The notes: generated from the letters alone by a model not told the origin. A DNA stretch of 64,000 nt from Pseudomonas sp. NCCP-436 (GCF_019656335.1 NZ_BPLZ01000002.1:178904-242903); one strand, 5' to 3'; counted from the stretch's first letter, positions 26,802 to 40,475 are shown. Numbers and translations: made by a program.

Positions 26802-27255
26802 CGGCGCGTCTCAGCAGAAATGGAAAGGCCAGGCGCTTAAGCAGGGGCAGTTCGATGATGGTCATGCCCAGCAGGGTGTTGTCGTCGAACTGACGCAGTT
26901 CATCGCGCAGCCAGCGCCAGGGAATAGGCCCGTGGGCTCCGTAGCTCAGATCTACGCCGATCTTGCCGTCGATCAGGGACGGGCGCCTGTTGCACTGCAT
27001 GGAGAACTTCTCCATCAGTTGTCCGCGCCGGCGCAGTACGTTGGTGGCGGTGAGCGGGTCGAGGAAGCGTTTACCCTGCCATCCGGGCAGGCCGCACAGT
27101 GCCACGCTGGGGTCGGCACAGACACGCAGCCAGGCCGGGCCGATAAAGCTCGCCTGGTAGAAGCCTGTGCGACTCGATACTGGTGCCGGAGCCAGCTGCC
27201 GGAACAGTTGGCCCAGCTGTTTCAGGGAAGCATTGCTAAGCGAGGCGTGGTGCAT
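26785..27255 (-). CDS. Hypothetical protein (about 157 aa), coupled to the GMC oxidoreductase
   Basis: Coding-like frame overlapping the GMC start by 17 nt. Start chosen at ATG 27255. Confidence 0.45.
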   Translation of the reverse strand: MHHASLSNASLKQLGQLFRQLAPAPVSSRTGFYQASFIGPAWLRVCADPSVALCGLPGWQGKRFLDPLTATNVLRRRGQLMEKFSMQCNRRPSLIDGKIGVDLSYGAHGPIPWRWLRDELRQFDDNTLLGMTIIELPLLKRLAFPFLLRRADAPEL

Positions 27256-27344
27256 GCTGGTGCGAGATCCTGCTCTTCGGCCGGTTTGCGTCCAGCATGC
27301 CCAGTACGTCGGCCACCGCCTAGCACCTTGGCATGATCGTCCTG

Positions 27345-28544
27345 TCAAATGGCTCCATGGCTGCGCAGTTCGGCGATCTGTTCGGGACTGTAGCCAAGCT
27401 CGCCGAGCACCTCGTCATTGTGCTGGCCCAATGCCGGGCCGATCCATTCGACGCTGCCGGGCGTCTCCGAGAGCTTGGGGACGATGCCCGGCATGCGGAA
27501 CGGTTTGCCGTCCGGCAGCCTGGCGGCAAGGAACATCTCGCGGGCCAGGTATTGTGGGTCGCCGAACATGTCCTCTACCGAGTAGATGCGGCTGGCCGGC
27601 ACTTCGGCTTGTCGCAGCACCTGCTCCACCTCGCTGAGAGGCAGGCTCGCGGCCCAGCGGTCGATGACCTCATACAGTTCGCCGCGCCGTGCATCGCGAC
27701 CATCGTTGCTGGCCAGGCCCGGATCGTTTGCCAGGTCGTCGCGGCCGATGGCCAGCATGAAGCGCTTGAAAATGGCATCGCCGTTGGCGCCAATCTGGAT
27801 GTGCTTGTTGTCGGCGGTGGTGTGGATCGAGGATGGCGTGATGCCGGGCATGATGTTGCCACTGCGTTCGCGGATGAAGCCGAACACGTCAAACTCCGGC
27901 ACCATCGACTCCATCATGGCGAACACGGCTTCGTAAAGTGCCACGTCCACCACCTGGCCGCTACCGCCGTTGACTTCGCGCTGGCGCAGGGCCATCAGGG
28001 CGCCGATCACGCCCCAGAGGGCGGCGATGGAGTCACCGATGCTGATGCCGGTGCGTACCGGTGGGCGATCCTCGAAGCCGGTGATGTAGCGCAGGCCGCC
28101 CATGGACTCGCCGACGGCGCCGAAGCCCGGCTGTTCCTTCATCGGGCCACTCTGGCCGAACCCGGAAAGACGCACCATCACCAGTTTGGGGTTGAGTGCG
28201 TGCAGGGTCTGCCAGTCGAAACCGAGTTTTTCCAGTACGCCGGGGCGGAAATTCTCGATCAGGACATCGGCATTGCTCAACAGTCTGCGCAGAGCCTCGC
28301 GACCAGCCTCATGCTTGAGGTTGAGGGTGATCGAGCGCTTGTTGCGTGCCTGTACGAACCACCACAGCGAGGTGCCTTCATAAATCTTGCGCCACTTGCG
28401 CAGCGGATCGCCACCGTCGGGCGATTCCACCTTGATGACTTCGGCGCCGAACTCGGCGCAGATGCGGGAGGCGAAGGGGCCGGCGATCAGGCTGCCTAGC
28501 TCGATGACCTTGAGGCCGGCGAGGGGTTTGCTGGATGTGTTCAT
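27345..28544 (-). CDS. CoA-transferase family III (CaiB/BaiF)
   Basis: LAGLKVIELGSLIAGPFASRICAEFGAEVIKVE. Catalytic Asp region present. AGGAG ribosome-binding site. Confidence 0.9.
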   Translation of the reverse strand: MNTSSKPLAGLKVIELGSLIAGPFASRICAEFGAEVIKVESPDGGDPLRKWRKIYEGTSLWWFVQARNKRSITLNLKHEAGREALRRLLSNADVLIENFRPGVLEKLGFDWQTLHALNPKLVMVRLSGFGQSGPMKEQPGFGAVGESMGGLRYITGFEDRPPVRTGISIGDSIAALWGVIGALMALRQREVNGGSGQVVDVALYEAVFAMMESMVPEFDVFGFIRERSGNIMPGITPSSIHTTADNKHIQIGANGDAIFKRFMLAIGRDDLANDPGLASNDGRDARRGELYEVIDRWAASLPLSEVEQVLRQAEVPASRIYSVEDMFGDPQYLAREMFLAARLPDGKPFRMPGIVPKLSETPGSVEWIGPALGQHNDEVLGELGYSPEQIAELRSHGAI

Positions 28545-28806
28545 GCGGGCTCCTGTGAGTGACTGCGCGGCAAGCCTATTCCTTTTCCGGAGTGTCGGCC
28601 AGGCGTTGCAAGTGCGAATGGGTTGACGCATTTCTGAGTGCACTTGCTGCCTGGCTGCGGTTTAATCTGCTGGCCAAAGGACATTCCCGGATTTTGCTCA
28701 TGGATGGCTTTTCTCCTCTTTTCCCTGTCGTTCTTCCTGCCGGACGCAGCTCATGCGTGATGGCGGGATGACTTCGCGTCTTTTCCGACGAATGACATGA
28801 CGCACT

Positions 28807-28838
28807 TCACATGTGATGTATTGCGATGTCACATGTGA
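28807..28838. promoter_or_regulatory. Tandem perfect palindromes TCACATGTGA (x2, 22-bp spacing); putative operator
   Basis: 28807-28816 and 28829-28838, about 20 bp upstream of the first ATG of the locus. Confidence 0.55.
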
Positions 28839-28856
28839 GGTTTTACGCTGAGGCGC

Positions 28857-29477
28857 ATGAGTACCAGGACATCAGCCTATTACCAGCGTCTTTATCGCCA
28901 GCGACTGCGTGAGCAGGGACTGGTGAAGAAGGAAGTCTGGATCCTGCCCGAGCACGCGCCGCTGTTGCTCGCGTTCGAGCGCAAACTCCGCCAGCCACAG
29001 GTGTCGCTGGCTACGATGGAAAAGGAGGAGGGTATGAGCATGCCGCAGGTTTGGACCGCCCAGGCGCTGTACGAGGCGCTGGCAGGTACGCAGCTTTTCC
29101 AGAGTGGGCAGGCCGGTATCGAACTGCTGCAGGGCGCTGACGCCAGTCTGCATGTGACCATGCATGAGTACGGCGAGCTGCCGTTGTTCATTGCGGTGTC
29201 CGGCGAGCAGATCGTGGTCGAGGCCCTGCTGTGGCCGGCCAGTGAGGTGATTGATGCGGCCACCTTCAACGAGGAGGTGCTGCGGACCCACAAGCTGTTT
29301 CCGCTGTCGTCCATCGGTCTGGAGCGCACGGCTGACGGTGGCGACTGCTACATCATGTTCGGCGCGCTGAGTTCGTCCTCGACCTTGGCCGACGTGGTGT
29401 TCGAGATCGAGCTGCTGGCCGACAACGTGATCAAGGCCACCGAAGCCTATGAAGGCTTCCTCAAGACCGGCGCCTGA
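28857..29477 (+). CDS. YjfI-like (DUF2170) protein with an N-terminal DUF3018-like (putative RHH-type DNA-binding) extension
   Basis: The first 59 aa carry YRQRLREQGL...VWILPEH (DUF3018-like). A strong internal ribosome-binding site AAAGGAGGAG precedes ATG 29034, so a shorter product starting at 29034 is possible. Confidence 0.65.
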   Translation: MSTRTSAYYQRLYRQRLREQGLVKKEVWILPEHAPLLLAFERKLRQPQVSLATMEKEEGMSMPQVWTAQALYEALAGTQLFQSGQAGIELLQGADASLHVTMHEYGELPLFIAVSGEQIVVEALLWPASEVIDAATFNEEVLRTHKLFPLSSIGLERTADGGDCYIMFGALSSSSTLADVVFEIELLADNVIKATEAYEGFLKTGA

Positions 29478-29491
29478 GAGGAGAACAAGCG

Positions 29492-30187
29492 ATGAATGTC
29501 TGGAGCAAGTTGCTGACGGCACTGCGCGGCGGTGCCAATGAAGTGGGTGAAGCCATGGTCGACAGCCAGGCCCTGCGTATCCTCGATCAGGAAATCCGCG
29601 ACGCCGACGCCGAGCTGCGCAAGTCCAAGGAGGCGCTGGCCGAGATCATGGCCAGGCACAAGCTGTCGGTGGACCGGTTGGCCAAGTGTACGGCGAGCAT
29701 TGCCGAGTATGAGCAGTACGCCCTCAAGGCGCTGGAAAGCGGCAACGAATCGCTGGCCAGGGAAGTGGCCGAGAAGATCGCCAACCTGGAGATCGAACAG
29801 GCCAGCGAGCGTGAGCAGGTCGAAGGTTTTGCCGCCAGCGTGGCGCAACTGCGCCAGGCGGTGAGCCAGGCCGAAGGCAATATCAAGCGCCTCAAGCAGC
29901 AGGTGGATACGGTCAAGGCCACCGAAAGCGTGCAGCGTGCGCAGATGGCCGTGGCCCAGCGCTACGGTGGTTCGCAGGCCAAGCTGCAGACCGCGGTCGA
30001 GTCGCTGGAGCGGATCAAGCAGAAGCAGGCCGAGCGGGTGGCGAAGATGGAGGCCTCGGCCGAGCTGGCCGCCACCAGTGCTCCGGACGATTCGCTGGAT
30101 GCCAAGCTGCGCGAGGCCGGGATCAAGGCCGGTAATGCCAGTGCCGAGAGTGTGTTGGCGCGCCTTAAGGACAAGGGCCGCGGTTGA
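29492..30187 (+). CDS. PspA/IM30 family protein (YjfJ-like; ESCRT-III superfamily)
   Basis: Coiled-coil PspA-like sequence (MNVWSKLLTALRGGANE...). GAGAGGAGAA ribosome-binding site. Confidence 0.85.
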   Translation: MNVWSKLLTALRGGANEVGEAMVDSQALRILDQEIRDADAELRKSKEALAEIMARHKLSVDRLAKCTASIAEYEQYALKALESGNESLAREVAEKIANLEIEQASEREQVEGFAASVAQLRQAVSQAEGNIKRLKQQVDTVKATESVQRAQMAVAQRYGGSQAKLQTAVESLERIKQKQAERVAKMEASAELAATSAPDDSLDAKLREAGIKAGNASAESVLARLKDKGRG

Positions 30188-30246
30188 GCCTTGTAAATAC
30201 GGGGCGCCTGCGTCCCGTTACCTGATTCGCTACGGAAAAGCATCAG

Positions 30247-30888
30247 ATGGAACTCTTCCTGCAGACTTTACTGTCGTTCCCTACAGTCATCTACAGCTTC
30301 CTGCTGTGCGTGGCGGTCATCTACTGGCTGGTGGTGGCTGCCGGTCTGCTGGAGATCGACCTGCTCGACATCGAGGCCGAGTCGGTGATGGAAGGCAGCG
30401 GCCAGACCGAGGGGCTGGCCGGTCTGCTGTACAAGTTCAAGCTTGATGGCGTTCCGCTCACCCTGATGCTGAGCCTGCTGTTCTTCTTCGGCTGGTTCGT
30501 CTGTTATTTCGTCGAGCTGTGGCTGCTGCGTCATCTGCCCTTGGGCTTACTGCGCTACCCGCTGGGGCTGCTGGTCATTGGTGGTGCCTTCGTCGTGGCT
30601 GCGCCATTGTCTGCTGCCGTTTGCCGGCCGTTGCGTCCTCTGTTCCTCAAGGCCGAAGCCACCAGCAACAAGTCGGTGCTGGGGCAGGTGGCAGTGGTAC
30701 GTAGCGGAAGGGTTAGCGCCAGCCATGGCGAGGCAATACTGGAGGATGGCGGTGCAGGCCTGATTCTGCGCGTGCGTTGCGATGAGACACAGGGCTTTAG
30801 GCGCGGCGACCGGGTGGTGCTGCTGGAGTACCTGGCAGCCGAGCACGCCTACCGGGTAATCAGCGAAGAAGAGTTCCGAGGCGTCTAG
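30247..30888 (+). CDS. YqiJ/NfeD-like inner-membrane protein (usual partner of SPFH proteins)
   Basis: N-terminal transmembrane helices and a C-terminal OB-like soluble domain. Sits directly upstream of the flotillin gene. Confidence 0.6.
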   Translation: MELFLQTLLSFPTVIYSFLLCVAVIYWLVVAAGLLEIDLLDIEAESVMEGSGQTEGLAGLLYKFKLDGVPLTLMLSLLFFFGWFVCYFVELWLLRHLPLGLLRYPLGLLVIGGAFVVAAPLSAAVCRPLRPLFLKAEATSNKSVLGQVAVVRSGRVSASHGEAILEDGGAGLILRVRCDETQGFRRGDRVVLLEYLAAEHAYRVISEEEFRGV

Positions 30889-30979
30889 CGGCTGCGGCCA
30901 GTCCCCTGGCAACGGAGCATCGGCAGGATGGGCGGCTGTCGTGCCTGTCGGTACATAAAAGCAAAGGAGTAGAGCTGTA

Positions 30980-33022
30980 ATGGAAAACCTTATCCCCTTC
31001 ATCGTCGGGGCAGGGCTGGTCGTTCTTTTCGTGATGGCCCTGATAGCCCTGTTCAAGGCGTTCTACATCAAGGTTCCGCAGGGTACGGCGCTGATCGTCA
31101 ACGACATGAGTTCCACCCCCAAGGTGCACTTCACCGGTGCGCTGGTGTATCCGGTGATCCACCTCAAGGAGTTCATGAAGATATCCCTGATCACCCTGGA
31201 GGTGGATCGTCGCGGCAAGGACGGGCTGATCTGCCGTGACAATCTGCGGGCCGACATCACCGTGGCCTTCTACCTGCGGGTCAACGAAACTCAGGAAGAC
31301 GTGCTAAAGGTGGCCAAGGCCATCGGTGTGGAGCGCGCTTCCGACCGTGGTGCGGTCAACGAGCTGTTCAACGCCAAGTTTTCCGAGGCGCTGAAGACCG
31401 TCGGCAAGCAGTTCGACTTCGTCCAGCTGTTCGAGAATCGCCAGGAGTTCCGTGACCGCATCGTCGAGGTGATCGGCAATGACCTCAACGGCTATGTGCT
31501 GGAGGACGTGGCCATCGACTATCTGGAGCAGACAGCTAAAACGTCGTTGGATCCAAGCAACATTCTTGATGCCGAAGGTATCCGCAAGATCACTGAGCTG
31601 ACCGCCGCGCAGAACGTCATCACCAACGAGCTGGAGCGCAACGAAGAGCTGGCGATCAAGAAGAAAAACGTCGAGACACGCGAGGCCACCCTGGCTCTGG
31701 AACGCCAGCAGGCCGACGCCGAAGCACGGCAGAAGCGTGAGATCGAGACCATCCGTGCCCGCGAAGAGGCCGAAACCCTCAAGGTGCGCGAGGAAGAGCG
31801 TCTGAAGGCCGAACAGGCGCGTATCCAGACTCAGCAGGAGCTGGATATTCGTGCCGAGAACCATTTGCGCGAGGTCGAGGTAGCCCAGCAGAACCGCCAG
31901 CGTGCGGTGGTCATCGAGATGGAGAAGGTCACCCGTGCCAAGGAGCTGGAAATGGTGGCCCGCGAGCGGGAAGTGGAGTTGCAGCGCATCGAAAAGGAAA
32001 AGGCGCTGGAAGAAGAGCGCAAGAATATCGCCGGAGTGATCCGCGAGCGCGTGGCGGTGGAGAAGACCGTGGCGCAGGAAGAGGAGCGCATCAAGGAGGT
32101 GCGCGAGGTTTCCGAGGCCGAGCGTCTCAAGCAGGTCGCCGTGCTCAACGCCCAGGCTGAAGCGGAGCAGGAGCTGGTGCGTCAGGTCAAGCAGGCCGAA
32201 GCCGACGAAGCCCGCTCCAAGCACAAGGCGGTGGAGATCAATACCCTGGCCCAGGCCGAGCTGGAGGCTGCGGCCAAGAGCGCCGAGGCCAAGAAGAAAC
32301 TCGCCGAAGGCATCGAAGCCGAGCGCGCGGCCCCCGGCCTGGCCGACGCCAAGGTGCGTGAAGTCACTGCTGCGGCAAAAGAGAAGGAAGGCCTGGCCGA
32401 AGCCCGCGTGGAGGCCGAGCGTCTGATCGCCGAAGCCAAGGGCGAGCAGGAAAAAGGTCTGGCGGAAGCGCGTGTGCTGGAAGCCCAGGCGGCCGCCAAG
32501 GAGAAAGACGGCCTGGCCGAAGCCAGGGTGATGGAGGAAAAACTCAGTGCCCAGGCACGTGGCGAAGAGCAACTGGGTCTGGCCAAGGCCAAGGCGACCA
32601 AGGAGCAGGGCTCTGCCGAGGCGGCAATCCTGCTGGAGCGTCTGAGCTCCGAAGCCGAAGGTCTGGGCAAGAAGTTCGGTGCTCTGGATTCGCTCAGCGA
32701 TGCGGCGCGTGCCCACGAGGAGTTCCGCATGCAGCTGGAGAAGAGCTTCGAGGAAGCCATGGCTGCCATCGCCGCAAACAAGGAAATCGCCAAGGATCAG
32801 GCCGAGGTGCTGGCCGCGGCCATGGCCAAGGCGAAGATCGAGATCGTCGGCGGCGAGGGCGACTTCTTCAATTCCTTCGCCAAGTCGCTGTCGGTGGGCA
32901 AGGCCATCGAAGGTGTGGTCGGCAAGAGCCCAGTGGTGCAGGACGTGATCGCCCGCCTGCTGGCTGGCAAGGCCGCAGCAGCGCAGCCGGTCGCGCCGAG
33001 CGCAGGTCCGGAGCAGGGCTGA
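30980..33022 (+). CDS. Flotillin-like SPFH/band-7 protein (YqiK-type)
   Basis: N-terminal transmembrane segment, an SPFH domain and a long EA-rich coiled coil with internal repeats. AAAGGAG ribosome-binding site. Confidence 0.88.
   Translation: MENLIPFIVGAGLVVLFVMALIALFKAFYIKVPQGTALIVNDMSSTPKVHFTGALVYPVIHLKEFMKISLITLEVDRRGKDGLICRDNLRADITVAFYLRVNETQEDVLKVAKAIGVERASDRGAVNELFNAKFSEALKTVGKQFDFVQLFENRQEFRDRIVEVIGNDLNGYVLEDVAIDYLEQTAKTSLDPSNILDAEGIRKITELTAAQNVITNELERNEELAIKKKNVETREATLALERQQADAEARQKREIETIRAREEAETLKVREEERLKAEQARIQTQQELDIRAENHLREVEVAQQNRQRAVVIEMEKVTRAKELEMVAREREVELQRIEKEKALEEERKNIAGVIRERVAVEKTVAQEEERIKEVREVSEAERLKQVAVLNAQAEAEQELVRQVKQAEADEARSKHKAVEINTLAQAELEAAAKSAEAKKKLAEGIEAERAAPGLADAKVREVTAAAKEKEGLAEARVEAERLIAEAKGEQEKGLAEARVLEAQAAAKEKDGLAEARVMEEKLSAQARGEEQLGLAKAKATKEQGSAEAAILLERLSSEAEGLGKKFGALDSLSDAARAHEEFRMQLEKSFEEAMAAIAANKEIAKDQAEVLAAAMAKAKIEIVGGEGDFFNSFAKSLSVGKAIEGVVGKSPVVQDVIARLLAGKAAAAQPVAPSAGPEQG
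32380..32600 (+). repeat. Imperfect in-frame tandem repeats inside the flotillin gene (encode KEK(E/D)GLAEARV... units)
   Basis: Three to four units of about 57-60 nt of gaaggcctggccgaagcccgcgtg-like sequence. Confidence 0.6.
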
Positions 33023-33030
33023 AAAATGTA

Positions 33031-33097
33031 GGGTGGACAAGGCTCTTGTTGTCCACCATTGGCGACTCGAACGGTGGACAAGCTGCGCGTTGTCCAC
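33031..33097. promoter_or_regulatory. Twin stem-loops GGTGGACAA-N8-TTGTCCACC (x2) between the flotillin and giant genes
   Basis: 33031-33056 and 33072-33097. Identical 9-bp arms. No U-tail. Confidence 0.5.
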
Positions 33098-33248
33098 CCA
33101 CCGACTACGCAGCATCATCGCCCGGCTTCACCCCGAGGAAGTCGACGAGGCACTGCGCGCCAAGATTGCCATTGTCGAGCAAAAGATCGGCGCTTGACTG
33201 ATGGGGTGGCTCAGGCCATCCGGATGCTGCAAATCCAGGAAGAACACG

Positions 33249-36200
33249 ATGTCGGACGCACAAACACAGGACGTATTGGACCGTGCCGTTGCCGAAGGCG
33301 GCGCCTACGAGGTGCTGCACAGGCGCCTGCAGGAGCAGGGCCAGCGCCTGCGCGGACTGACCGAAGCACTCAATGACCAGCGTCTGGCCGAGTTCGGCAG
33401 CAGTCAGATGGAAGCCATCGGCCGGGTACGCATCCGCACCGAAAACAACTGCATCGCCCGCGATATCGTCCAGGTCGGCGACAGCCTGCTATTCGGCTAC
33501 AACGTGTTCATCGGTCTGAAGAAGGAAACCCACGTCGCCGACGTGTTCTCCCTCTATCGTCTGGTCGAGGGTGTCGAAGGCTTCGAGGCCGAGCCGGTGC
33601 CGCTGGAGGGCAGTTTCCTGGCTCAGGCCAGTTTCGTCGCCGACTTCAACGAGCTGTACACCTATTACAAGAACACCCGCCTGCTGCAGCTAGCCATTCG
33701 CGACGGCAAGCTGCTGGCGAGTTTCCAGATCGGAGAGCGGATCACCGATATCCGCGTGTTCCGCTGGTCGATCTCCATGGACGGCAAGGACGTTCGCTAC
33801 ATCGACAACCGCGGCGAACGCGATATCGCGCTGCCGTCGCCGTTCGACTTCGAATGGCAGAAGACTTCCCGCGAGATGGTGGTCGCCGGCCGCCATCCGC
33901 ACATGAACATTCTCGATACCCTGTTCGTCGAGACCATCGGTGGCGACCTCACCATCAAGGTCGAGAACAACACCCAGGACGGTTTGGGCATCTACCGCGA
34001 AACGGTGGTGGACAAGACCCAGTCGCTGGACGACGCGCAGATCGAATATGCCCGTCTGGGCAGCCTGATCCTGTTGAAGATCCTGCCGTACCGCGAGGAG
34101 CAGTGGCGCTACCTGGTGTTCAACAGCCTGACCCGCCAGGTCGAACGCATCGATGCCATCGGCCTGGCCTGCGTGCAGCTGCCGGAAGACCACGGCATCA
34201 TCTTCCCCGGCGGCTACTACCTGCAGAGCGGCGAGTACAAGACCTTCGAGCAGCCCATGGGCGGCATGCGCTTCAAGCGCTCGGTGCGCTCACCCAACGG
34301 CGAGGACGTGCAGTACATCTTCTACCACCCGGAAGAAGGCCGTTCGGCGTTGTTCACCTACAACATGATCAACCGCCAGCTGCACAACCCCATCTTCGGC
34401 CACGGCTATGCGCGCCTGGAAGACGGGCGCATGGTGATCTTTTCCGCCGAGGGCAGCGAGCCGACCCGCATCCACCCGATGCAGATCTGGCAGACGCCGT
34501 TCGAGAGCGATGACTACGCCGCACGCCAGCCGGCGCGCAGCGGCTTCTTCGGGCGCATCGGCAACGCCGAGCTGGTGCGTGGTGTGTCCGACCTGCTTAA
34601 CCTCAGCCGTGAGATCGACAGCCGCGAAGTGTCGGTGGCGCGCTACACCCAGTTGTGCCAGAACACCCGTCGCCTGTTCGACGTCTATCACTGGCTGGGC
34701 GATGCCCAGTGCGCCGAGCTGGCGCCGCTGCTGCGCGAGATCGCCGCTACTGGCGAGCTGGTACTAGACGAATTCGAGAAGGTCGAGAGCATCCGCCAGC
34801 AGTCTGCCCGCGCCATGGCCGAGGCCGAGACACGGCACAAGAGCCTGCTCTCCGGCCTGCTGGTCGACAGCTGGGACGAGGTGCAGCATTTTGTCGAGGC
34901 ACTCAACGCCATCAATGCCCAACGCGGCCAGTTGCTGACCATCCGCGACCACCGCTACATCGACGTGGCGCGTATCGACGCCATGGAAACCGAGTTGCTG
35001 GAAGCGCAGGAGCGCGTGGCCACGGCCACTTCCGCCTTCCTCGCCAGCGACGCCGCGCTGCAACCCTACGTGCAGCGCCTGGGCGAGCTGGACAGCCTGG
35101 CGCAGAAGGCCGAGAGCGTCACCCAGCTCAACGAGCCGCTGGCCGAGATGCAGGCCATGGCCGGCAACCTGGACATGCTCTCCAGCCTGATGGCCGGGCT
35201 CAAGATCGACGACGCCACCCGGCGCACCGCCATCGTCGAGTCGATTTCCGAGGTCTACGCCCACCTCAACCAGGCCAAGGCGCGTGCCGAGCAGCGGCGC
35301 AAGGGGCTAGGCTCGGCCGAGACCGTGGCGCAGTTCGGCGCCCAGTTCAAGCTATTCGGTCAGGGCATCACCAACGCCCTGGCGCTGGCCCAGGATCCGG
35401 AGAAGTGCGACGAGCAGCTGTCGCGCCTGCTGGTGCAGCTCGAAGAGCTGGAAAGCCAGTTCGGTGATCACGAGCAGTTCCTCAGCGACATTCTCGGCAA
35501 GCGCGAGGAACTGCTGGAAACCTTCGAGTCGCACAAGCAGAGCCTGCTCGACGACCGCCAGCGCCGCGCCCAAGGCGTGCTCGATGCCGCCCGGCGCATC
35601 CTCGACAGCCTGAGCCGACGCACCGCGCGTCTGACCCAGATGGAAGAGCTCAACGCCTTCTTCGCCGCCGACCCGCTGATCCTCAAGCTGCGCGAGATGG
35701 CCGAGCGCCTGCGCGAGCTCAAGGACAGCGTCAAGGCCGATGATGTCGAAGCGCGTCTGAAGGCCGCCCGCGACCAGGCCGTGCGCGCCCTGCGCGACAA
35801 GAGCGAGCTGTTCGAGGAGGGCGGCAACGTCATCAGGCTCGGTCCGCGCCACCGCTTCAGCGTCAACACCCAGGAACTCGACCTGACCCTGATGCCGCGC
35901 GGTGATCAGCTCTATCTGCACCTGACCGGCACCGATTTCCTCGAACCGCTGCGCGACGAGAGGCTGGATGGTCTGCGCGACTACTGGCAGGTGTCGCTGG
36001 AGTCAGAATCGCCTTCGCTGTACCGCGCCGAATACCTCGTCGGCCTGGTGCTCGACGCCGCCTTGGCCGACCGTGAAGGACTGAGCCTGGATCTGCTCAA
36101 GACCCACCTGGCGCAGCCGGAAACCCTGACCCGGCTGATCCGCGACTTCGCCGCGCCGCGCTACAAGGATGCCTACGAGAAGGGCATCCACGATCATGAT

Positions 36201-38486
36201 GCGGCGCTGATCCTCGCCCGGTTGCTGCCGCTGCGCGAAAGCGCCGGGCTGCTGCGTTACGCGCCGGCCGCGCGGGGCTTTGCCGCGCTGTTCTGGAACC
36301 GCTGGGGACAGGATATCGAGGCCGAGCTGTGGCCGGAGCGCGCACGCAGCAGCCTGCACCTGCGCCAGTTGTTCGGCAGCGAGGACGGCGTGCAGCGCCT
36401 GCGCGAAGAGATCGATGCAGCCATGCAGCGCTTCCTCGCCCAGTACCCGCTGCCGGTAGACGCTGCGCAGCGCCAGGCGGCTGCGGCTTATCTGGTCGAG
36501 GAACTGGCGGCCAAGCCCATCGAGTTCAGCTTCAGCAGGTACGCCCGGCAACTGCTCGACAGCCTGCAGCAGCGCATGCAGGCCAGCCATGTCTGGGACG
36601 ACTACCGCGCCGCGCTGGACAACCTGCGTGGCCGCCCGGTGCAGCGCTGGTCGCTGGCGCAGACCTGGTTCGACGGCCTGTGTGCGCAGGATGCCAGCAT
36701 GGCCGAGCTGGCCGACTATGTGCCCGAAGCCATCGCCGTCAGCCTGCTGGATGACGAATTCCCGCGGCGTTTCACCGAGGTCGACCTGCGTTTCACTGTC
36801 AGCGGCCTGCTCGGCGATCATCCGCGTGTGCAGGATGGCGCGCTGCTGCTGGCCATCGACGACTACTTCGCCCGCCTGCAGCAGCACCTGGATCACTTCG
36901 TGCCGCAACTGCAGCGCTACCAGGCGCTGCGCCAGGAGGTGATCAACCGCGAGCGCGATGCGCTGCGCCTGAGCGAATTCAAGCCACGGCCGCTGTCGTC
37001 CTTCGTGCGCAACAAGCTGATCAATGACGTGTACCTGGGTTTCATCGGCGACAACCTGGCCAAGCAGATGGGCACCGCCGGCGAGAACAAGCGTACCGAC
37101 CTGATGGGCCTGCTGATGCTCATCTCACCGCCCGGCTACGGCAAGACCACGCTGATGGAGTACGTGGCACACCGCCTGGGCCTGATCTTCATGAAGGTCA
37201 ACGGCCCGGCGCTCGGTCACGAGGTGCGTTCCATCGATCCGGCGCAGGCGCCGGACGCCACCTCGCGCCAGGAGCTGGAGAAGCTCAACCTGGCTCTGGA
37301 GATGGGCAACAACGTGATGCTCTACGTCGACGACATCCAGCACACCCACCCCGAGTTTCTGCAGAAATTCATCTCGCTGTGCGACGGCACGCGGCGCATC
37401 GAAGGCGTGTGGAAGGGCAGGACCAAGACCTACGACATGCGCGGCAAGAAGTTCTGCGTGGTGATGAGCGGCAACCCGTACACCGAGTCCGGCGACGTGT
37501 TCAAGATTCCCGACATGCTCGCCAACCGCGCCGACATCTACAACCTCGGCGACACCCTCGGCGGCATGCAGGAAGCCTTCGCGCTGAGCTACATCGAGAA
37601 CGCCCTGACCTCCAACCCGGTGCTGGCGCCATTGGCCACCCGCGACATGGCCGACGTCTACCGCTTCGTCGCCAAGGCCGAGGGCAAGCCGTTCTCGGTG
37701 GGCGAGCTGAGCCACACCTACAGCGCCGCCGAGATCAACGAGATCACCTCGACCCTGCAGCGTCTGATGCAGGTGCGCGACGTGGTGCTCAAGGTCAACC
37801 AGCAGTACATCGCCAGCGCCGCGCAGGCCGACAGCTACCGCACCGAGCCGCCGTTCAAGCTGCAGGGCAGCTACCGCAATATGAACAAGATGGCCGAGAA
37901 GATCAGCTCGGTGATGAACGATGCCGAGCTGCTGCAGCTGATCGCCGACCACTATCAGGGCGAGTCGCAGCTGCTCACCACCGGCGCCGAGGAGAACCTG
38001 CTCAAGCTCGCCGAGCTGCGCGGCAACCAGACGTCCGAGCAGGCCGAGCGCTGGGCGCAGATCAAGCGCGACTTCATGCGCAACAAGGCCATGGGCGGCA
38101 GCGACAGCGATATTGGTGGCCGCGTGGTGGCGCAGCTCAATGACCTGGTCGAGAGCGTGCGCGGCCTGGGCGCCGGCAAGTCGGTCAGCGAAGCACCGAG
38201 CATTCCCTGGGAGCAGTTGCTGGCGGGGCTGGATAACCTCGGCAAGCTGCGTCCGCAGGTGGAGCTGGTTGCTCCGCCGCAGCCCGGCACGCAAAAATTG
38301 CTCGAAAGCCTGGCCGATAGCCTGGAGAACAGCTTTCTGCCGCTGATCAAGGCGATGGACAAGAAGATCGACATCGATTTGCGCACCCACAACCGCATGC
38401 TGGAAATCTCCACCCAGCTGCGTGACCTCGGCACGTTGCTCGGCCAGGAGCAGCGCAGCGCTGCCGCGGACGACGAGGCGACGTGA
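33249..38486 (+). CDS. Giant (1745 aa) uncharacterised protein: N-terminal beta-rich region, long coiled-coil middle, single MoxR/AAA_5-type ATPase domain near the C-terminus
   Basis: AGGAAG ribosome-binding site. Walker A SPPGYGKTT (about nt 37128), Walker B MLYVDDIQ, sensor VVMSGNPYTE, and an LANRAD arginine-finger-like motif. Confidence 0.85.
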   Translation: MSDAQTQDVLDRAVAEGGAYEVLHRRLQEQGQRLRGLTEALNDQRLAEFGSSQMEAIGRVRIRTENNCIARDIVQVGDSLLFGYNVFIGLKKETHVADVFSLYRLVEGVEGFEAEPVPLEGSFLAQASFVADFNELYTYYKNTRLLQLAIRDGKLLASFQIGERITDIRVFRWSISMDGKDVRYIDNRGERDIALPSPFDFEWQKTSREMVVAGRHPHMNILDTLFVETIGGDLTIKVENNTQDGLGIYRETVVDKTQSLDDAQIEYARLGSLILLKILPYREEQWRYLVFNSLTRQVERIDAIGLACVQLPEDHGIIFPGGYYLQSGEYKTFEQPMGGMRFKRSVRSPNGEDVQYIFYHPEEGRSALFTYNMINRQLHNPIFGHGYARLEDGRMVIFSAEGSEPTRIHPMQIWQTPFESDDYAARQPARSGFFGRIGNAELVRGVSDLLNLSREIDSREVSVARYTQLCQNTRRLFDVYHWLGDAQCAELAPLLREIAATGELVLDEFEKVESIRQQSARAMAEAETRHKSLLSGLLVDSWDEVQHFVEALNAINAQRGQLLTIRDHRYIDVARIDAMETELLEAQERVATATSAFLASDAALQPYVQRLGELDSLAQKAESVTQLNEPLAEMQAMAGNLDMLSSLMAGLKIDDATRRTAIVESISEVYAHLNQAKARAEQRRKGLGSAETVAQFGAQFKLFGQGITNALALAQDPEKCDEQLSRLLVQLEELESQFGDHEQFLSDILGKREELLETFESHKQSLLDDRQRRAQGVLDAARRILDSLSRRTARLTQMEELNAFFAADPLILKLREMAERLRELKDSVKADDVEARLKAARDQAVRALRDKSELFEEGGNVIRLGPRHRFSVNTQELDLTLMPRGDQLYLHLTGTDFLEPLRDERLDGLRDYWQVSLESESPSLYRAEYLVGLVLDAALADREGLSLDLLKTHLAQPETLTRLIRDFAAPRYKDAYEKGIHDHDAALILARLLPLRESAGLLRYAPAARGFAALFWNRWGQDIEAELWPERARSSLHLRQLFGSEDGVQRLREEIDAAMQRFLAQYPLPVDAAQRQAAAAYLVEELAAKPIEFSFSRYARQLLDSLQQRMQASHVWDDYRAALDNLRGRPVQRWSLAQTWFDGLCAQDASMAELADYVPEAIAVSLLDDEFPRRFTEVDLRFTVSGLLGDHPRVQDGALLLAIDDYFARLQQHLDHFVPQLQRYQALRQEVINRERDALRLSEFKPRPLSSFVRNKLINDVYLGFIGDNLAKQMGTAGENKRTDLMGLLMLISPPGYGKTTLMEYVAHRLGLIFMKVNGPALGHEVRSIDPAQAPDATSRQELEKLNLALEMGNNVMLYVDDIQHTHPEFLQKFISLCDGTRRIEGVWKGRTKTYDMRGKKFCVVMSGNPYTESGDVFKIPDMLANRADIYNLGDTLGGMQEAFALSYIENALTSNPVLAPLATRDMADVYRFVAKAEGKPFSVGELSHTYSAAEINEITSTLQRLMQVRDVVLKVNQQYIASAAQADSYRTEPPFKLQGSYRNMNKMAEKISSVMNDAELLQLIADHYQGESQLLTTGAEENLLKLAELRGNQTSEQAERWAQIKRDFMRNKAMGGSDSDIGGRVVAQLNDLVESVRGLGAGKSVSEAPSIPWEQLLAGLDNLGKLRPQVELVAPPQPGTQKLLESLADSLENSFLPLIKAMDKKIDIDLRTHNRMLEISTQLRDLGTLLGQEQRSAAADDEAT

Positions 38487-39031
38487 GACGAGGCTGGCTG
38501 GTTGAGTTGCGTCCGCTGCTGCTGATCAGCGGCGCGATGCTGCTGGTGCAGGTGGTCAATGGCGCCCGGAGTGGCGCCTTGAATCTCTGGGGCCTGGTGC
38601 CCCGCCATATCGAGGCGCTACCCGGCATCCTTCTCGCGCCCTGGCTACACGGCAGCTGGGCGCATCTGCTCAGCAATCTCAGTGGTCTGCTGGTACTCGG
38701 CAGTCTGGTGCTGCTGCGCTCGCGTCGGGACTTTTTCCTCGCCAGCGCCTTCATCATCGTCGGCAGCGGGGTGCTGGTCTGGCTGTTCGGCCGTACCGGC
38801 CTGCATGTCGGTGCCAGTGGCTGGCTGTTCGGCTTCTGGGGACTTTTACTGGCCCGGGCCTGGTTCGAGCGCAGCCTGCTCGACCTGCTGTTGGCGGTGC
38901 TGGTCTTCTTCCTTTATGGCGGCTGGTTCTTCGGCCTGCTGCCACGCGCCGGGGTCTCCTTCGAGTACCACCTGGCTGGTGCCTTCAGCGGCGTGCTATA
39001 CGCTGCGCTGAGTCGCCACCGCAATCAATGA
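38483..39031 (+). CDS. Rhomboid-family intramembrane serine protease
   Basis: GASGWLFG (Gx-S-G catalytic Ser) and HLAGAFSG (catalytic His). Six transmembrane helices. GTGA start/stop overlap with the giant gene. Confidence 0.8.
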   Translation: MRRGWLVELRPLLLISGAMLLVQVVNGARSGALNLWGLVPRHIEALPGILLAPWLHGSWAHLLSNLSGLLVLGSLVLLRSRRDFFLASAFIIVGSGVLVWLFGRTGLHVGASGWLFGFWGLLLARAWFERSLLDLLLAVLVFFLYGGWFFGLLPRAGVSFEYHLAGAFSGVLYAALSRHRNQ

Positions 39032-39046
39032 CGAAAGGGAATTTGC

Positions 39047-39736
39047 ATGGACTTCAACCGCCTCGACCAAACCCTGCGCGACAGCCTCGCCGACCTGCGC
39101 CTGAGCAATGAAGAGCGCGACGAACTGCGTGATCTGGGCAACGACCTGAGCCCGGATCAGGTGCGCTTCATGCGCAACCGCGCCTTTGCTCTGGTGCGTG
39201 ACCTGATCGCCAACCCCGAGGATGCCCTGCCGGCGCTGAAGTGGCTGGAGCAGGTGATCAAGACCCTGGAAGTGCGCTGTTCACCACTGCGCGGTCACAG
39301 CAGCGCGCACTTCAGTCCTGGCGAGAGCTGCCGCCAGCGCATCCGCGACCTGTGCCGCCACGCCCGGGAGTCGGTGGATGTCTGTGTGTTCACCATCTCC
39401 GATGACCAGCTCAGCGACGAACTGATTGCCGTGCACCGCCGAGGCCTGGCCGTGCGCATCATCAGCGACAGCGAGAAGCGCTTCGACGTCGGCAGTGACA
39501 TCCAGCAGCTGATCGATGCCGGCGTACCGCTGCGCATCGACAACAGCCCCTTCCACATGCACCACAAGTTCGCCCTGTTCGACGGCCGCCTGCTGCTCAA
39601 TGGCAGCTTCAACTGGACCCGCAGTGCCAGCACCAGCAATGAGGAAAACCTGCTGGTGACCGACGACCCGCATCTGGTTGGCGAGTACCAGCGTGAGTTC
39701 GACAAGCTCTGGGGCCGTTATGCAAGCAATGAATGA
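39047..39736 (+). CDS. Phospholipase D-like / Nuc-like single-HKD protein
   Basis: HMHHKFALFDGRLLLNGSFNWTRSA (HxK...D...GSxN). Helical N-terminal extension. AAAGGGA ribosome-binding site. Confidence 0.85.
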   Translation: MDFNRLDQTLRDSLADLRLSNEERDELRDLGNDLSPDQVRFMRNRAFALVRDLIANPEDALPALKWLEQVIKTLEVRCSPLRGHSSAHFSPGESCRQRIRDLCRHARESVDVCVFTISDDQLSDELIAVHRRGLAVRIISDSEKRFDVGSDIQQLIDAGVPLRIDNSPFHMHHKFALFDGRLLLNGSFNWTRSASTSNEENLLVTDDPHLVGEYQREFDKLWGRYASNE

Positions 39737-39935
39737 CGCATGCTTGCGCCACCTGTCCGGTGAGTATCCGCCTGTGGCGATTGACTGCGGCTGAAGGCTG
39801 GAGCGCTGTAACCGGTCCGCTATGGGGCGCTCGGAACAGGTTCTATGATGAGCCTGCTTCCAGCCAGGCGGAAGCAGCAGAGACAGGCTATTCGAGGTAG
39901 ACTTGTCGCCCTGTTTTTTCGCCAAGAAGCCCGCC

Positions 39936-40475
39936 ATGGCCCTGCCGTCGACCACCTACAAGATCGAAATGAATCTCACGGACATGGATCGCAGCGTTTA
40001 TGAAAACCTGCGGTTCACTGTCGCCCGTCACCCGTCCGAGACCGAAGAGCGTCTGGCTGTGAGGTTGATCGCCTACGCGCTGTTTTACGACGAGCTATTG
40101 GCCTTTGGTCGCGGTCTGTCGGATGTGGACGAGCCGGCACTGTGGCAGAAGAGCCTTGATGATCGGGTTCTACACTGGATCGAGGTGGGCCAGCCGGACA
40201 GCGAGCGCATCACCTGGTGCAGTCGCCGCGCCGAGCGCTTCAGCCTGGTGGCTTACGGCAATCTGCGGGTCTGGCAGGGAAAATGCCTCGAGCCGGTACG
40301 CAACCTGAAAAACATCAACGTGGTGGCTCTGGGGCAGGAGGCGTTGACCGATCTGGCGCAAGATCTGCCTCGCTCGCTGTCCTGGAGCGTGATGATCAGC
40401 GATGGCGAACTGTTCGTCACCGACGAGCGTGGACAGCACGAGATTCCGCTGGAGTGGCTGGTCGGCGAACGCTGA
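39936..40475 (+). CDS. yaeQ: YaeQ family protein
   Basis: MALPSTTYKIEMNLTDMDRSVYE... is the characteristic YaeQ N-terminus. Confidence 0.85.
   Translation: MALPSTTYKIEMNLTDMDRSVYENLRFTVARHPSETEERLAVRLIAYALFYDELLAFGRGLSDVDEPALWQKSLDDRVLHWIEVGQPDSERITWCSRRAERFSLVAYGNLRVWQGKCLEPVRNLKNINVVALGQEALTDLAQDLPRSLSWSVMISDGELFVTDERGQHEIPLEWLVGER

Follow-up and report, generated by a model that had tools for sequence, protein, structure and literature searches.

What unites seven genes that lie one behind another on the same strand and encode, among others, a PspA-type protein, a flotillin, a giant ATPase, a rhomboid protease and a phospholipase D (PLD)-superfamily enzyme—and which of these products does the ATPase actually work with? 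We addressed this question for a stretch of 64,000 nucleotides (nt) from Pseudomonas sp. NCCP-436 (GCF_019656335.1, NZ_BPLZ01000002.1:178904-242903), hereafter the window, in which seven co-directional open reading frames (ORFs) on the + strand were confirmed across positions 28857-39736. Judged from sequence and gene order, the locus is the orthologue of the bacABCDEF operon of Pseudomonas aeruginosa (PA3732-PA3727), here with a rhomboid gene added. Its giant ATPase tracks the flotillin module and not PspA, and a pair of conserved palindromes marks a predicted promoter upstream of bacA. We interpret the array as a self-repressed, stress-inducible inner-membrane maintenance operon, and assign this interpretation a probability of about 0.6.

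The array and the bac operon of P. aeruginosa

The first gene, bacA (28857-29477; 206 amino acids (aa) in its long form), scores above the cut-off of the NCBIfam BacA equivalog NF050185 (343.5 versus 300 bits, residues 1-205 of 206) and contains a DUF2170 domain (Pfam, E 4.8e-52). After 14 nt follows bacB (29492-30187; 231 aa), a member of the PspA_IM30 family (PF04012; E 2.6e-56, 191.1 bits versus 33.9, residues 2-227) that reaches 24.1 bits against the 242.95 of the canonical PspA equivalog TIGR02977; by these scores it is a YjfJ-type paralogue and not PspA proper. The third gene, bacC (30247-30888; 213 aa), begins 59 nt further on and encodes a membrane protein with hydrophobic N-terminal segments and a soluble C-terminal domain. 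A Pfam scan of BacC gave no match, and its YqiJ-like character was recognized with a profile of 29 homologues aligned to E. coli YqiJ (hhalign probability 90.6%, E 1.3e-6). Among these homologues, YqiJ_N appeared below threshold in 6, NfeD matched none in Pfam, and a search of the BacC profile against the PDB returned noise. The flotillin gene, bacD (30980-33022; 680 aa), lies 91 nt downstream. The full-length protein had no Pfam match, presumably owing to its biased coiled coil, yet its N-terminal 240 aa matched Band_7 (E 4.3e-8, 33.9 bits versus 23.6), and BLASTP aligned it with E. coli YqiK (7e-40, 28% identity over 456 aa). With an N-terminal membrane anchor, an SPFH domain and a long coiled coil rich in Glu, Ala and Lys, BacD is equivalent to PaFlo3 of P. 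aeruginosa; no match was found among PDB sequences.

The fifth gene, bacE, occupies an ORF spanning 33201-38486, with the alignment of homologues placing its start at the ATG at 33249 (33249-38486; 1745 aa). The rhomboid gene (38483-39031; 182 aa) overlaps the end of bacE by 4 nt and is followed, after 15 nt, by the bacF orthologue (39047-39736; 229 aa), which encodes a cytosolic enzyme of the PLD superfamily with a single HKD motif. All seven identities proposed by an earlier, sequence-only reading of this DNA were borne out by Pfam, NCBIfam, hhalign, BLASTP and motif checks; its description of the genes as tightly packed holds for every spacing except the 226 nt between bacD and bacE. The first two proteins have the domains of E. 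coli YjfI and YjfJ (DUF2170 and PspA_IM30), and the next two resemble YqiJ and YqiK, the kinship of BacC with YqiJ being remote. In E. coli, however, yjfIJ and yqiJK lie at separate loci, and no giant ATPase stands beside yqiJK.

The correspondence with P. aeruginosa extends beyond gene content. On a P. aeruginosa contig (L082), a CoA_transf_3 gene is followed by genes for proteins of 206, 231, 213, 688, 1746 and 230 aa and then by YaeQ and RecJ; the array sits between the divergent CoA-transferase gene on one side and YaeQ-RecJ-LasB on the other, with the PLD gene directly after the ATPase gene. The window shows the same flanks—a CoA-transferase gene on one side, YaeQ-RecJ on the other, recJ being 0.8 kb downstream of the array—and in both loci 166-200 nt separate the PLD gene from this YaeQ/RecJ neighbourhood. 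Identities by tblastn to a P. paraeruginosa locus (L008) were 62% for BacA, 77% for the PspA-type protein, 71% for BacC, 87% for BacD (best segment) and 70% for the PLD enzyme, and BacE is 79% identical to a P. aeruginosa protein (P0032) whose cluster holds 3222 members. The genes are orthologous, and the two loci share their order, their chromosomal flanks and the arrangement of promoter and operators. This synteny with PA3732-PA3727 confirms the link, drawn in the sequence-only reading, to a biofilm-associated cluster of Pseudomonas.

The system already has a place in the literature. PA3729-PA3732 were named bac by Mace et al. (2008). In strain PA14, products of reverse transcription PCR were obtained over all bacA-F junctions, indicating co-transcription and co-regulation, BacB-F were 6-13-fold up in a bacA::Tn mutant, and the structure of BacA was solved (Wallart et al. 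2024, PMC10948618). Ravi et al. (2024, mSystems, PMC11237479) delineated a class of operons combining a CesT/Tir-PspA pair with a band-7/flotillin protein, a novel AAA+ protein and YqiJ/YuaF, with or without PLD, and had already drawn the inference of ESCRT-like membrane dynamics for it. The domain set of that class, including the optional PLD (HKD) protein, is identical to the one found here, and a wider "abbreviated" form with flotillin, YqiJ and ATPase was described as well. Expression data add to this picture: PA3728-PA3732 were co-induced in every P. aeruginosa sample infected with phage (PMC12041424) and showed a joint increase in a proteome study (PMC13637947), osmotic shock induced PA3731 (PMC2587700), and an RsmA study counted PA14_16190 with its most significantly regulated genes. 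The membrane-remodelling character proposed for the locus is consistent with this literature.

The core claim of a seven-gene system is therefore mostly published already and not new. Two of the three downstream genes that had been taken for uncharacterized are named, as bacE and bacF (the PLD gene); the third, the rhomboid gene, is an addition that P. aeruginosa lacks, inserted in the window between bacE and bacF. The word rhomboid was not found in the papers on bac or on the operon class that were searched for it, including Wallart et al. (2024) and Ravi et al. (2024), and in the text and one supplement of the latter the N-terminal domain of the DUF2170 protein and the operators likewise go unmentioned. 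In the literature, moreover, BacA is a short form of 146 aa and the promoter is assigned to sigma-54, and the window differs in both respects. As far as we found, the rhomboid-containing architecture, the BacA operator, the leaderless start and the isoform model described below appear to be new.

The partners of the giant AAA+ protein

A profile of BacE detected relatives in no fewer than 584 species representatives, of which the best 80 loci were analysed with tblastn and jackhmmer. Upstream genes were counted in the 68 loci with enough upstream DNA, the rhomboid and PLD genes over 72 loci and the complete array over 65. In all 68, bacC and bacD lie directly upstream of bacE, in the same order and on the same strand, with the bacC position immediately before the flotillin gene. 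BacA and the PspA-type protein, in contrast, behave as a pair: both are present in 51 loci and both absent from 17, and neither ever occurs alone. The rhomboid gene was found in 24 of 72 loci and the PLD gene in 30, with 17 carrying both; all seven genes in order were present in 16 of 65 loci, from the group of Ectopseudomonas, Aquipseudomonas and Phytopseudomonas, Cellvibrio, Saccharospirillaceae and Oleiphilaceae. This gene order lies far beyond chance, and the seven genes are one conserved, co-oriented array. The conserved machine within it consists of flotillin, the YqiJ-like protein and the AAA+ protein, with PspA/BacA and the two enzymes as add-ons. Because BacC-BacD-BacE is invariant (68/68) while BacA and PspA accompany it in only 51 of the 68 loci, the giant ATPase tracks the flotillin module and not PspA.

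BacE comprises an N-terminal DUF3686 domain (E 1e-206), DUF7902, a long helical middle region and one AAA+ module—alignment and Pfam both upholding the length of 1745 aa and the single ATPase domain that had been read from the DNA. The DUF3686 domain marks out a compact family: among 1.84 billion proteins clustered at 50%, it counts 765 representatives, and its full-length members are nearly all 1600-1900 aa long. The AAA+ module carries the Walker A motif GYGKT and the Walker B motif LYVDD, in which Asp replaces the usual catalytic Glu; LYVDD is shared without change by 12 homologues of 65-94% identity, and the region lies at approximately residues 1289-1365 of 1745. Of the earlier label, "MoxR/AAA_5-type", the AAA+ module stands, and no one clade was favoured: Pfam gave 27.9 bits for AAA_5 (versus 22) and 25.2 for AAA (versus 21.2), the AlphaFold2 model of the region had a low mean predicted local distance difference test score (pLDDT) of 60.6, and Foldseek returned generic matches, with a probability of 1.0 to RuvB and NorQ but template modeling (TM) scores below 0.4, and with RuvB, NorQ (MoxR-type), MCM, Rubisco activase and Vps4 all alike. 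Residues 1-1189 found no match in the PDB, and the C-terminal region matched there at the Walker A motif only.

The alternative that survives best is a machine of the ESCRT-III/Vps4 type, in which the giant AAA+ protein would mainly disassemble or recycle polymers of the PspA protein BacB and the flotillin and the enzymes would be accessory. PspA/IM30 is a member of the ESCRT-III superfamily, 51 of 68 loci combine PspA and the ATPase in one operon, and Vps4 is among the Foldseek matches; Ravi et al. (2024, PMC11237479) drew the same analogy for linkages between PspA and AAA+ proteins. Against this stand the 17 loci in which the ATPase occurs with flotillin and the YqiJ-like protein and lacks BacA/PspA, set beside none in which it occurs without flotillin and the YqiJ-like protein. 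Neither an MIT domain nor the Vps4 family was matched in BacE by Pfam, no classical pore-loop motif is visible, and the match to Vps4 is no better than those to RuvB, NorQ and MCM, all with TM scores below 0.4. The "ESCRT-III plus ATPase" logic of the sequence-only reading is thereby weakened; we regard the Vps4-type machine as unlikely, and a logic of SPFH scaffold plus AAA+ protein fits better.

The two optional enzymes, rhomboid and PLD, are translationally coupled to the ATPase gene; the 4-nt overlap between the rhomboid start and the bacE stop recurs in 16 loci. By its domain (E 3.7e-20, 73 bits versus 22.6; Pfam) and its catalytic motifs—HxxxN (AHLLSN), GASG and H..G..SG (YHLAGAFSG)—the product of the sixth gene is a rhomboid intramembrane serine protease. 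It scored 34.6 bits against the rhombosortase model TIGR03902, for which the cut-off is 84, and had no match among PDB sequences. The PLD enzyme (PLDc_2, E 1.9e-30, 105.8 bits versus 27) contains one HxK(x4)D(x6)GSxN motif, HHKFALFDGRLLLNGSFN. Its closest solved relatives are MitoPLD/Zucchini (9lkx, E 1.5e-28; 4ggj, 6.5e-25), ahead of Nuc (1byr, 5.9e-12), and by sequence it is far closer to the eukaryotic mitochondrial cardiolipin hydrolase than to Nuc and NucT. Like MitoPLD/Zucchini (PLD6) and Nuc, it has a single HKD motif, and a homodimeric active site would therefore be expected. A helical N-terminal extension of approximately 95 aa, for which no family match was found, takes the place of the membrane anchor of MitoPLD/Zucchini.

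In loci of the Xanthomonadales type, the position of the rhomboid gene is taken by a different ORF, which encodes an all-helical protein of 205-263 aa with the motif GWLGRLLGRDI and starts 4 nt before the ATPase stop, in translational coupling with the ATPase gene. This ORF was found in 18 loci and matched no Pfam family. The notion that it substitutes for PspA was rejected (hhalign probability 0.6%).

Palindromes, candidate promoter and two predicted forms of BacA

Upstream of bacA lie two copies of the palindrome TCACATGTGA, 22 bp apart: a distal one at 28807-28816 and a proximal one at 28829-28838. Position 28807, where the sequence-only reading let the locus begin, is the first base of the distal copy, and no gene starts there. 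Both copies match YACATGTR, and they are the only such sites in the 64-kb window. At least two YACATGTR sites within 200 nt upstream of bacA were present in 42 of 51 loci, mostly spaced by 22-24 bp, compared with 11 sites in the rest of the loci (1.78 Mb); the 17 bacA-less loci had none upstream of bacC. The pair is found in lineages of the Gamma-, Beta- and Deltaproteobacteria type, with Pseudomonas, Lampropedia and Candidatus Adiutrix among its carriers. Of the nine exceptions, five fall into a divergent subfamily of BacA with a variant pair, TCATGTAA / TTACATGA, 21 bp apart, where the bacA start codon falls inside the second operator copy; the PspA-type proteins of these five loci are 29-36% identical to that of the window. 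Sites for CRP/Vfr-type or other global regulators were considered for the palindrome and rejected on inspection of the order and spacing of the half-sites and on the restriction of the motif to loci with bacA.

Because a generic sigma-70 scan returned no promoter at its stringency, we derived promoter elements from cross-species conservation, using 37 loci anchored on the proximal palindrome. A common layout emerged: operator, TTGAC-like -35 element, operator in the spacer, TAGnCT -10 element, 6-7 nt and ATG. In the window, the candidate -35 hexamer TTGCGA (28821-28826, + strand; cross-locus consensus TTGAC/T over the 37 upstream regions) stands next to the distal palindrome, the proximal one lies inside the 17-nt spacer, and the candidate -10 hexamer TACGCT (28844-28849, + strand; consensus TAGnCT) ends 7 nt before the ATG. 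The same arrangement was found in P. aeruginosa itself. It suggests a sigma-70-type promoter that would be blocked by a repressor. With 6-7 nt between the -10 element and the ATG, the bacA mRNA is probably leaderless or nearly so; in none of 46 loci did a Shine-Dalgarno match of at least 5 nt precede the first bacA ATG. A sigma-54 promoter was rejected: a search of 27224-30248 for a consensus of the kind TGGCAC-N5-TTGCW, allowing up to two mismatches, gave no match, and the elements conserved over the 37 loci are sigma-70-like.

What protein would occupy such sites? BacA consists of a MazE-like/DUF3018-like region (approximately residues 1-47), a disordered linker (approximately 46-62) and a CesT/Tir-like DUF2170 domain (64-204). 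The first 47 residues are the best-conserved part of the protein and rich in invariant Arg and Lys, with Arg14, Arg16, Gly21, Lys24, Lys25 and Trp28 invariant. The MazE-like antitoxin family PF11455 (formerly DUF3018) ranked first in Pfam for 25 of 35 homologues, below threshold (best E 1.1e-3); the DUF3018-like N-terminus named in the sequence-only reading is borne out at this level, as a below-threshold likeness to the MazE-like family. This part lies outside the crystal structure, PDB 8q8o aligning only with residues 64-204, and a 16-kDa annotation of BacA in PAO1 omits it; YjfI is not known to have an N-terminal domain of the BacA type. A PDB search with the profile of this domain returned noise only (E >1). 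In the AlphaFold2 model of full-length BacA, the linker is disordered and the CesT-like domain confident.

Within bacA, an internal Shine-Dalgarno sequence, AAGGAGG (29022-29028), precedes an ATG at 29034 (Met60), together forming a predicted start of a short isoform (29022-29036, + strand). An internal Met located 6-8 codons before DUF2170 was preceded by a Shine-Dalgarno match of at least 5 nt in 37 of 46 loci, versus 7.8% of control codons, and this signal persists in the nucleotide sequence even where the residues of the linker vary (EKEEG, KGES, QEGI). We infer that the internal start yields a short BacA that would lack the predicted DNA-binding domain and retain the chaperone-like domain only. 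The Tn5 transposase and its inhibitor, among others, offer a precedent for such a pair, with internal-start isoforms of which the long one binds DNA and the short one keeps the dimerization domain; BacA is unrelated to these proteins, and its isoforms are purely predicted. Binding between BacA and BacB has been predicted by others with AlphaFold2 (probability 0.98; PMC13092808).

The palindromes could instead be bound by another regulator encoded elsewhere, the N-terminal domain of BacA having a role unrelated to DNA. This would accommodate a domain without a confident fold, for which DNA binding is proposed from sequence. Yet the operator pair occurs only where bacA is present (42/51 versus 0/17 loci) and does so in distant lineages, its sequence co-varies with the BacA subfamily, no further copy of the motif exists in the window, and a bacA mutant de-represses the operon (PMC10948618). 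Taken together, these observations make an unrelated regulator improbable.

Proposed membrane maintenance and competing functions

The proposed maintenance operon could work as follows. Long BacA would act as repressor of the operon, its N-terminal MazE-like domain binding the two TYACATGTRA palindromes of a sigma-70-type promoter, the first beside the -35 element and the second within the spacer; transcription would start at or next to the ATG and give a leaderless mRNA. The internal Shine-Dalgarno sequence and ATG would give short BacA, composed of the CesT-like domain only (the crystallized form), which may bind PspA or heterodimerize with the long form and in this way tune repression. Membrane damage would draw PspA to the membrane, change the occupancy of the operator by BacA and relieve repression. 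Flotillin and the YqiJ-like protein would then build a membrane scaffold, the AAA+ protein would assemble or remodel this scaffold and the proteins held there, the rhomboid would cut membrane-anchored clients, and the PLD enzyme would hydrolyse an anionic phospholipid such as cardiolipin.

Several points weigh against this interpretation. None of the Bac proteins has an established biochemical function, and deletion of paFlo3 (bacD) in PA14 lowered biofilm by only ~20%, with mild effects (PMC13086221). The BacA of the window scored 12.5 bits against PF11455, below the cut-off of 22, and AlphaFold2 modelled its N-terminal region at pLDDT 43-67, as two helices with no defined fold; DNA binding by BacA is a prediction. 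Two papers propose a sigma-54 promoter for bac, from sequence inspection only, and the derepression in the bacA::Tn mutant could partly be read-through from the transposon. In BacE, the Walker B motif has DD and not DE, and no pore loop is recognizable, leaving an unfoldase mechanism without assurance. Finally, enzymes of the MitoPLD family can be nucleases too, and the lipid substrate of the PLD enzyme is a prediction.

Two known systems help to place the array. The classical Psp response shares with it a PspA-family effector, an operon induced by envelope stress and control through a PspA-binding protein. It relies, however, on canonical PspA, whose equivalog model BacB fails, on PspF, PspB and PspC, none of which is encoded at the bac locus, and on sigma-54 with sequestration of an activator, whereas the bac locus has sigma-70-like elements and predicted repression. 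Assemblies of SPFH proteins with AAA+ proteins, and in some cases a rhomboid, include bacterial HflK/C-FtsH and the mitochondrial SLP2-PARL-YME1L (SPY) complex. By analogy, the SPFH scaffold tied to an AAA+ protein in HflK/C-FtsH and SPY may have its counterpart in the genetic linkage seen here, with a rhomboid in the present variant; unlike their ATPases, BacE has no protease domain, is ~1745 aa long and possesses a unique N-terminal region. A more specific model can be formulated on this basis. The bacA gene would be a switch of one gene and two proteins—a leaderless long autorepressor and a short CesT-like titrator of PspA and/or the long form—that would pass the state of the membrane to transcription without PspF or sigma-54, and the operon would be the bacterial counterpart of the mitochondrial SPFH hub, in which a flotillin/NfeD cage recruits the AAA+ remodeller, the rhomboid and a cardiolipin-type PLD, clearing damaged membrane proteins and remodelling anionic lipids at lesions. 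We offer this combined model tentatively, and would sooner expect it to fail than to hold in full.

A role in anti-phage defence or abortive infection would assign the array to sensing membrane perturbation during infection, with the large ATPase powering PLD as an effector nuclease. Pairs of a large ATPase and a PLD nuclease are common in defence systems. The PLD enzyme is weakly similar to DrmC, MkoC, DpdK and NucT, and the induction of PA3728-PA3732 in all phage-infected P. aeruginosa samples (PMC12041424) would also fit. PADLOC, however, matched no system-specific model, the best generic HKD match being DrmC (6.8e-9), along with coiled-coil similarity. The locus is chromosomal and syntenic with that of P. 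aeruginosa beside recJ, yaeQ and lasB, unlike a mobile defence island, and thousands of P. aeruginosa sequences contain it (the 3222-member BacE cluster). Fewer than half of the loci carry the PLD gene, and the operon is induced by osmotic shock and in biofilm too. We judge a defence function to be quite improbable. A role in DNA repair, with PLD as a Nuc-like nuclease, is scarcely credible: it draws on the Pfam description of DUF3686 and the PGAP product name "DNA repair ATPase", on recJ 0.8 kb downstream and on a weak RuvB-like similarity at Walker A, whereas no experimental basis for the name was found and a literature search for DUF3686 returned nothing, the invariant partners of BacE are two membrane proteins, the RuvB similarity is confined to the generic AAA+ core, and the recJ/yaeQ adjacency was seen in the window and the P. 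aeruginosa locus, the two loci checked for it, 166-200 nt away from the PLD gene.

Further features lie outside the seven genes. The bacD-bacE gap, which differs from that of P. aeruginosa, contains a decayed small gene and two 26-nt hairpins, GGTGGACAA..TTGTCCACC, spanning 33032-33098 (33032-33057 and 33073-33098; fold z-score -3.7). The hairpins have perfect stems and are the only copies in the window, and they were absent from all 81 loci examined, including relatives with BacE 92-94% identical; a conserved attenuator was accordingly rejected, and the hairpins look like a strain-specific insertion resembling repetitive extragenic palindromic elements. They occupy the place of the 5' part of an accessory gene of approximately 91 codons, of which the last 30 codons and the stop remain (33105-33197, + strand; tblastn 73% identity over 30 aa, E 6e-9). 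This small gene is intact at the same position in Ectopseudomonas composti (locus L001, 9548-9823) and occurs in 22 other loci at varied positions in or beside the operon; its product shows weak EF-hand/TerB-like similarity. Between the PLD gene and the YaeQ gene, a hairpin GCTGCTTCC-N8-GGAAGCAGC at approximately 39850-39880, without a T-tract and absent from the results of a terminator scan, is a possible end of the operon. An Rfam scan of 28400-40000 matched no RNA family.

With relatives in at least 584 species representatives, the operon forms part of the core chromosome of P. aeruginosa, where bac is linked to biofilm formation, swarming, virulence and the phage response. If BacA is indeed the repressor acting on the pair of 10-bp palindromes, this would replace the sigma-54 model and explain the proteome of the bacA mutant; if the short and long isoforms exist, the available crystal structure and mutants would need to be reinterpreted. 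The comparative data point to flotillin rather than PspA as the obligate partner of BacE, a 1745-aa AAA+ protein that has no solved relative. The rhomboid variant, in turn, represents a natural bacterial linkage of SPFH protein, AAA+ protein and rhomboid, and may provide a route to a bacterial rhomboid substrate.

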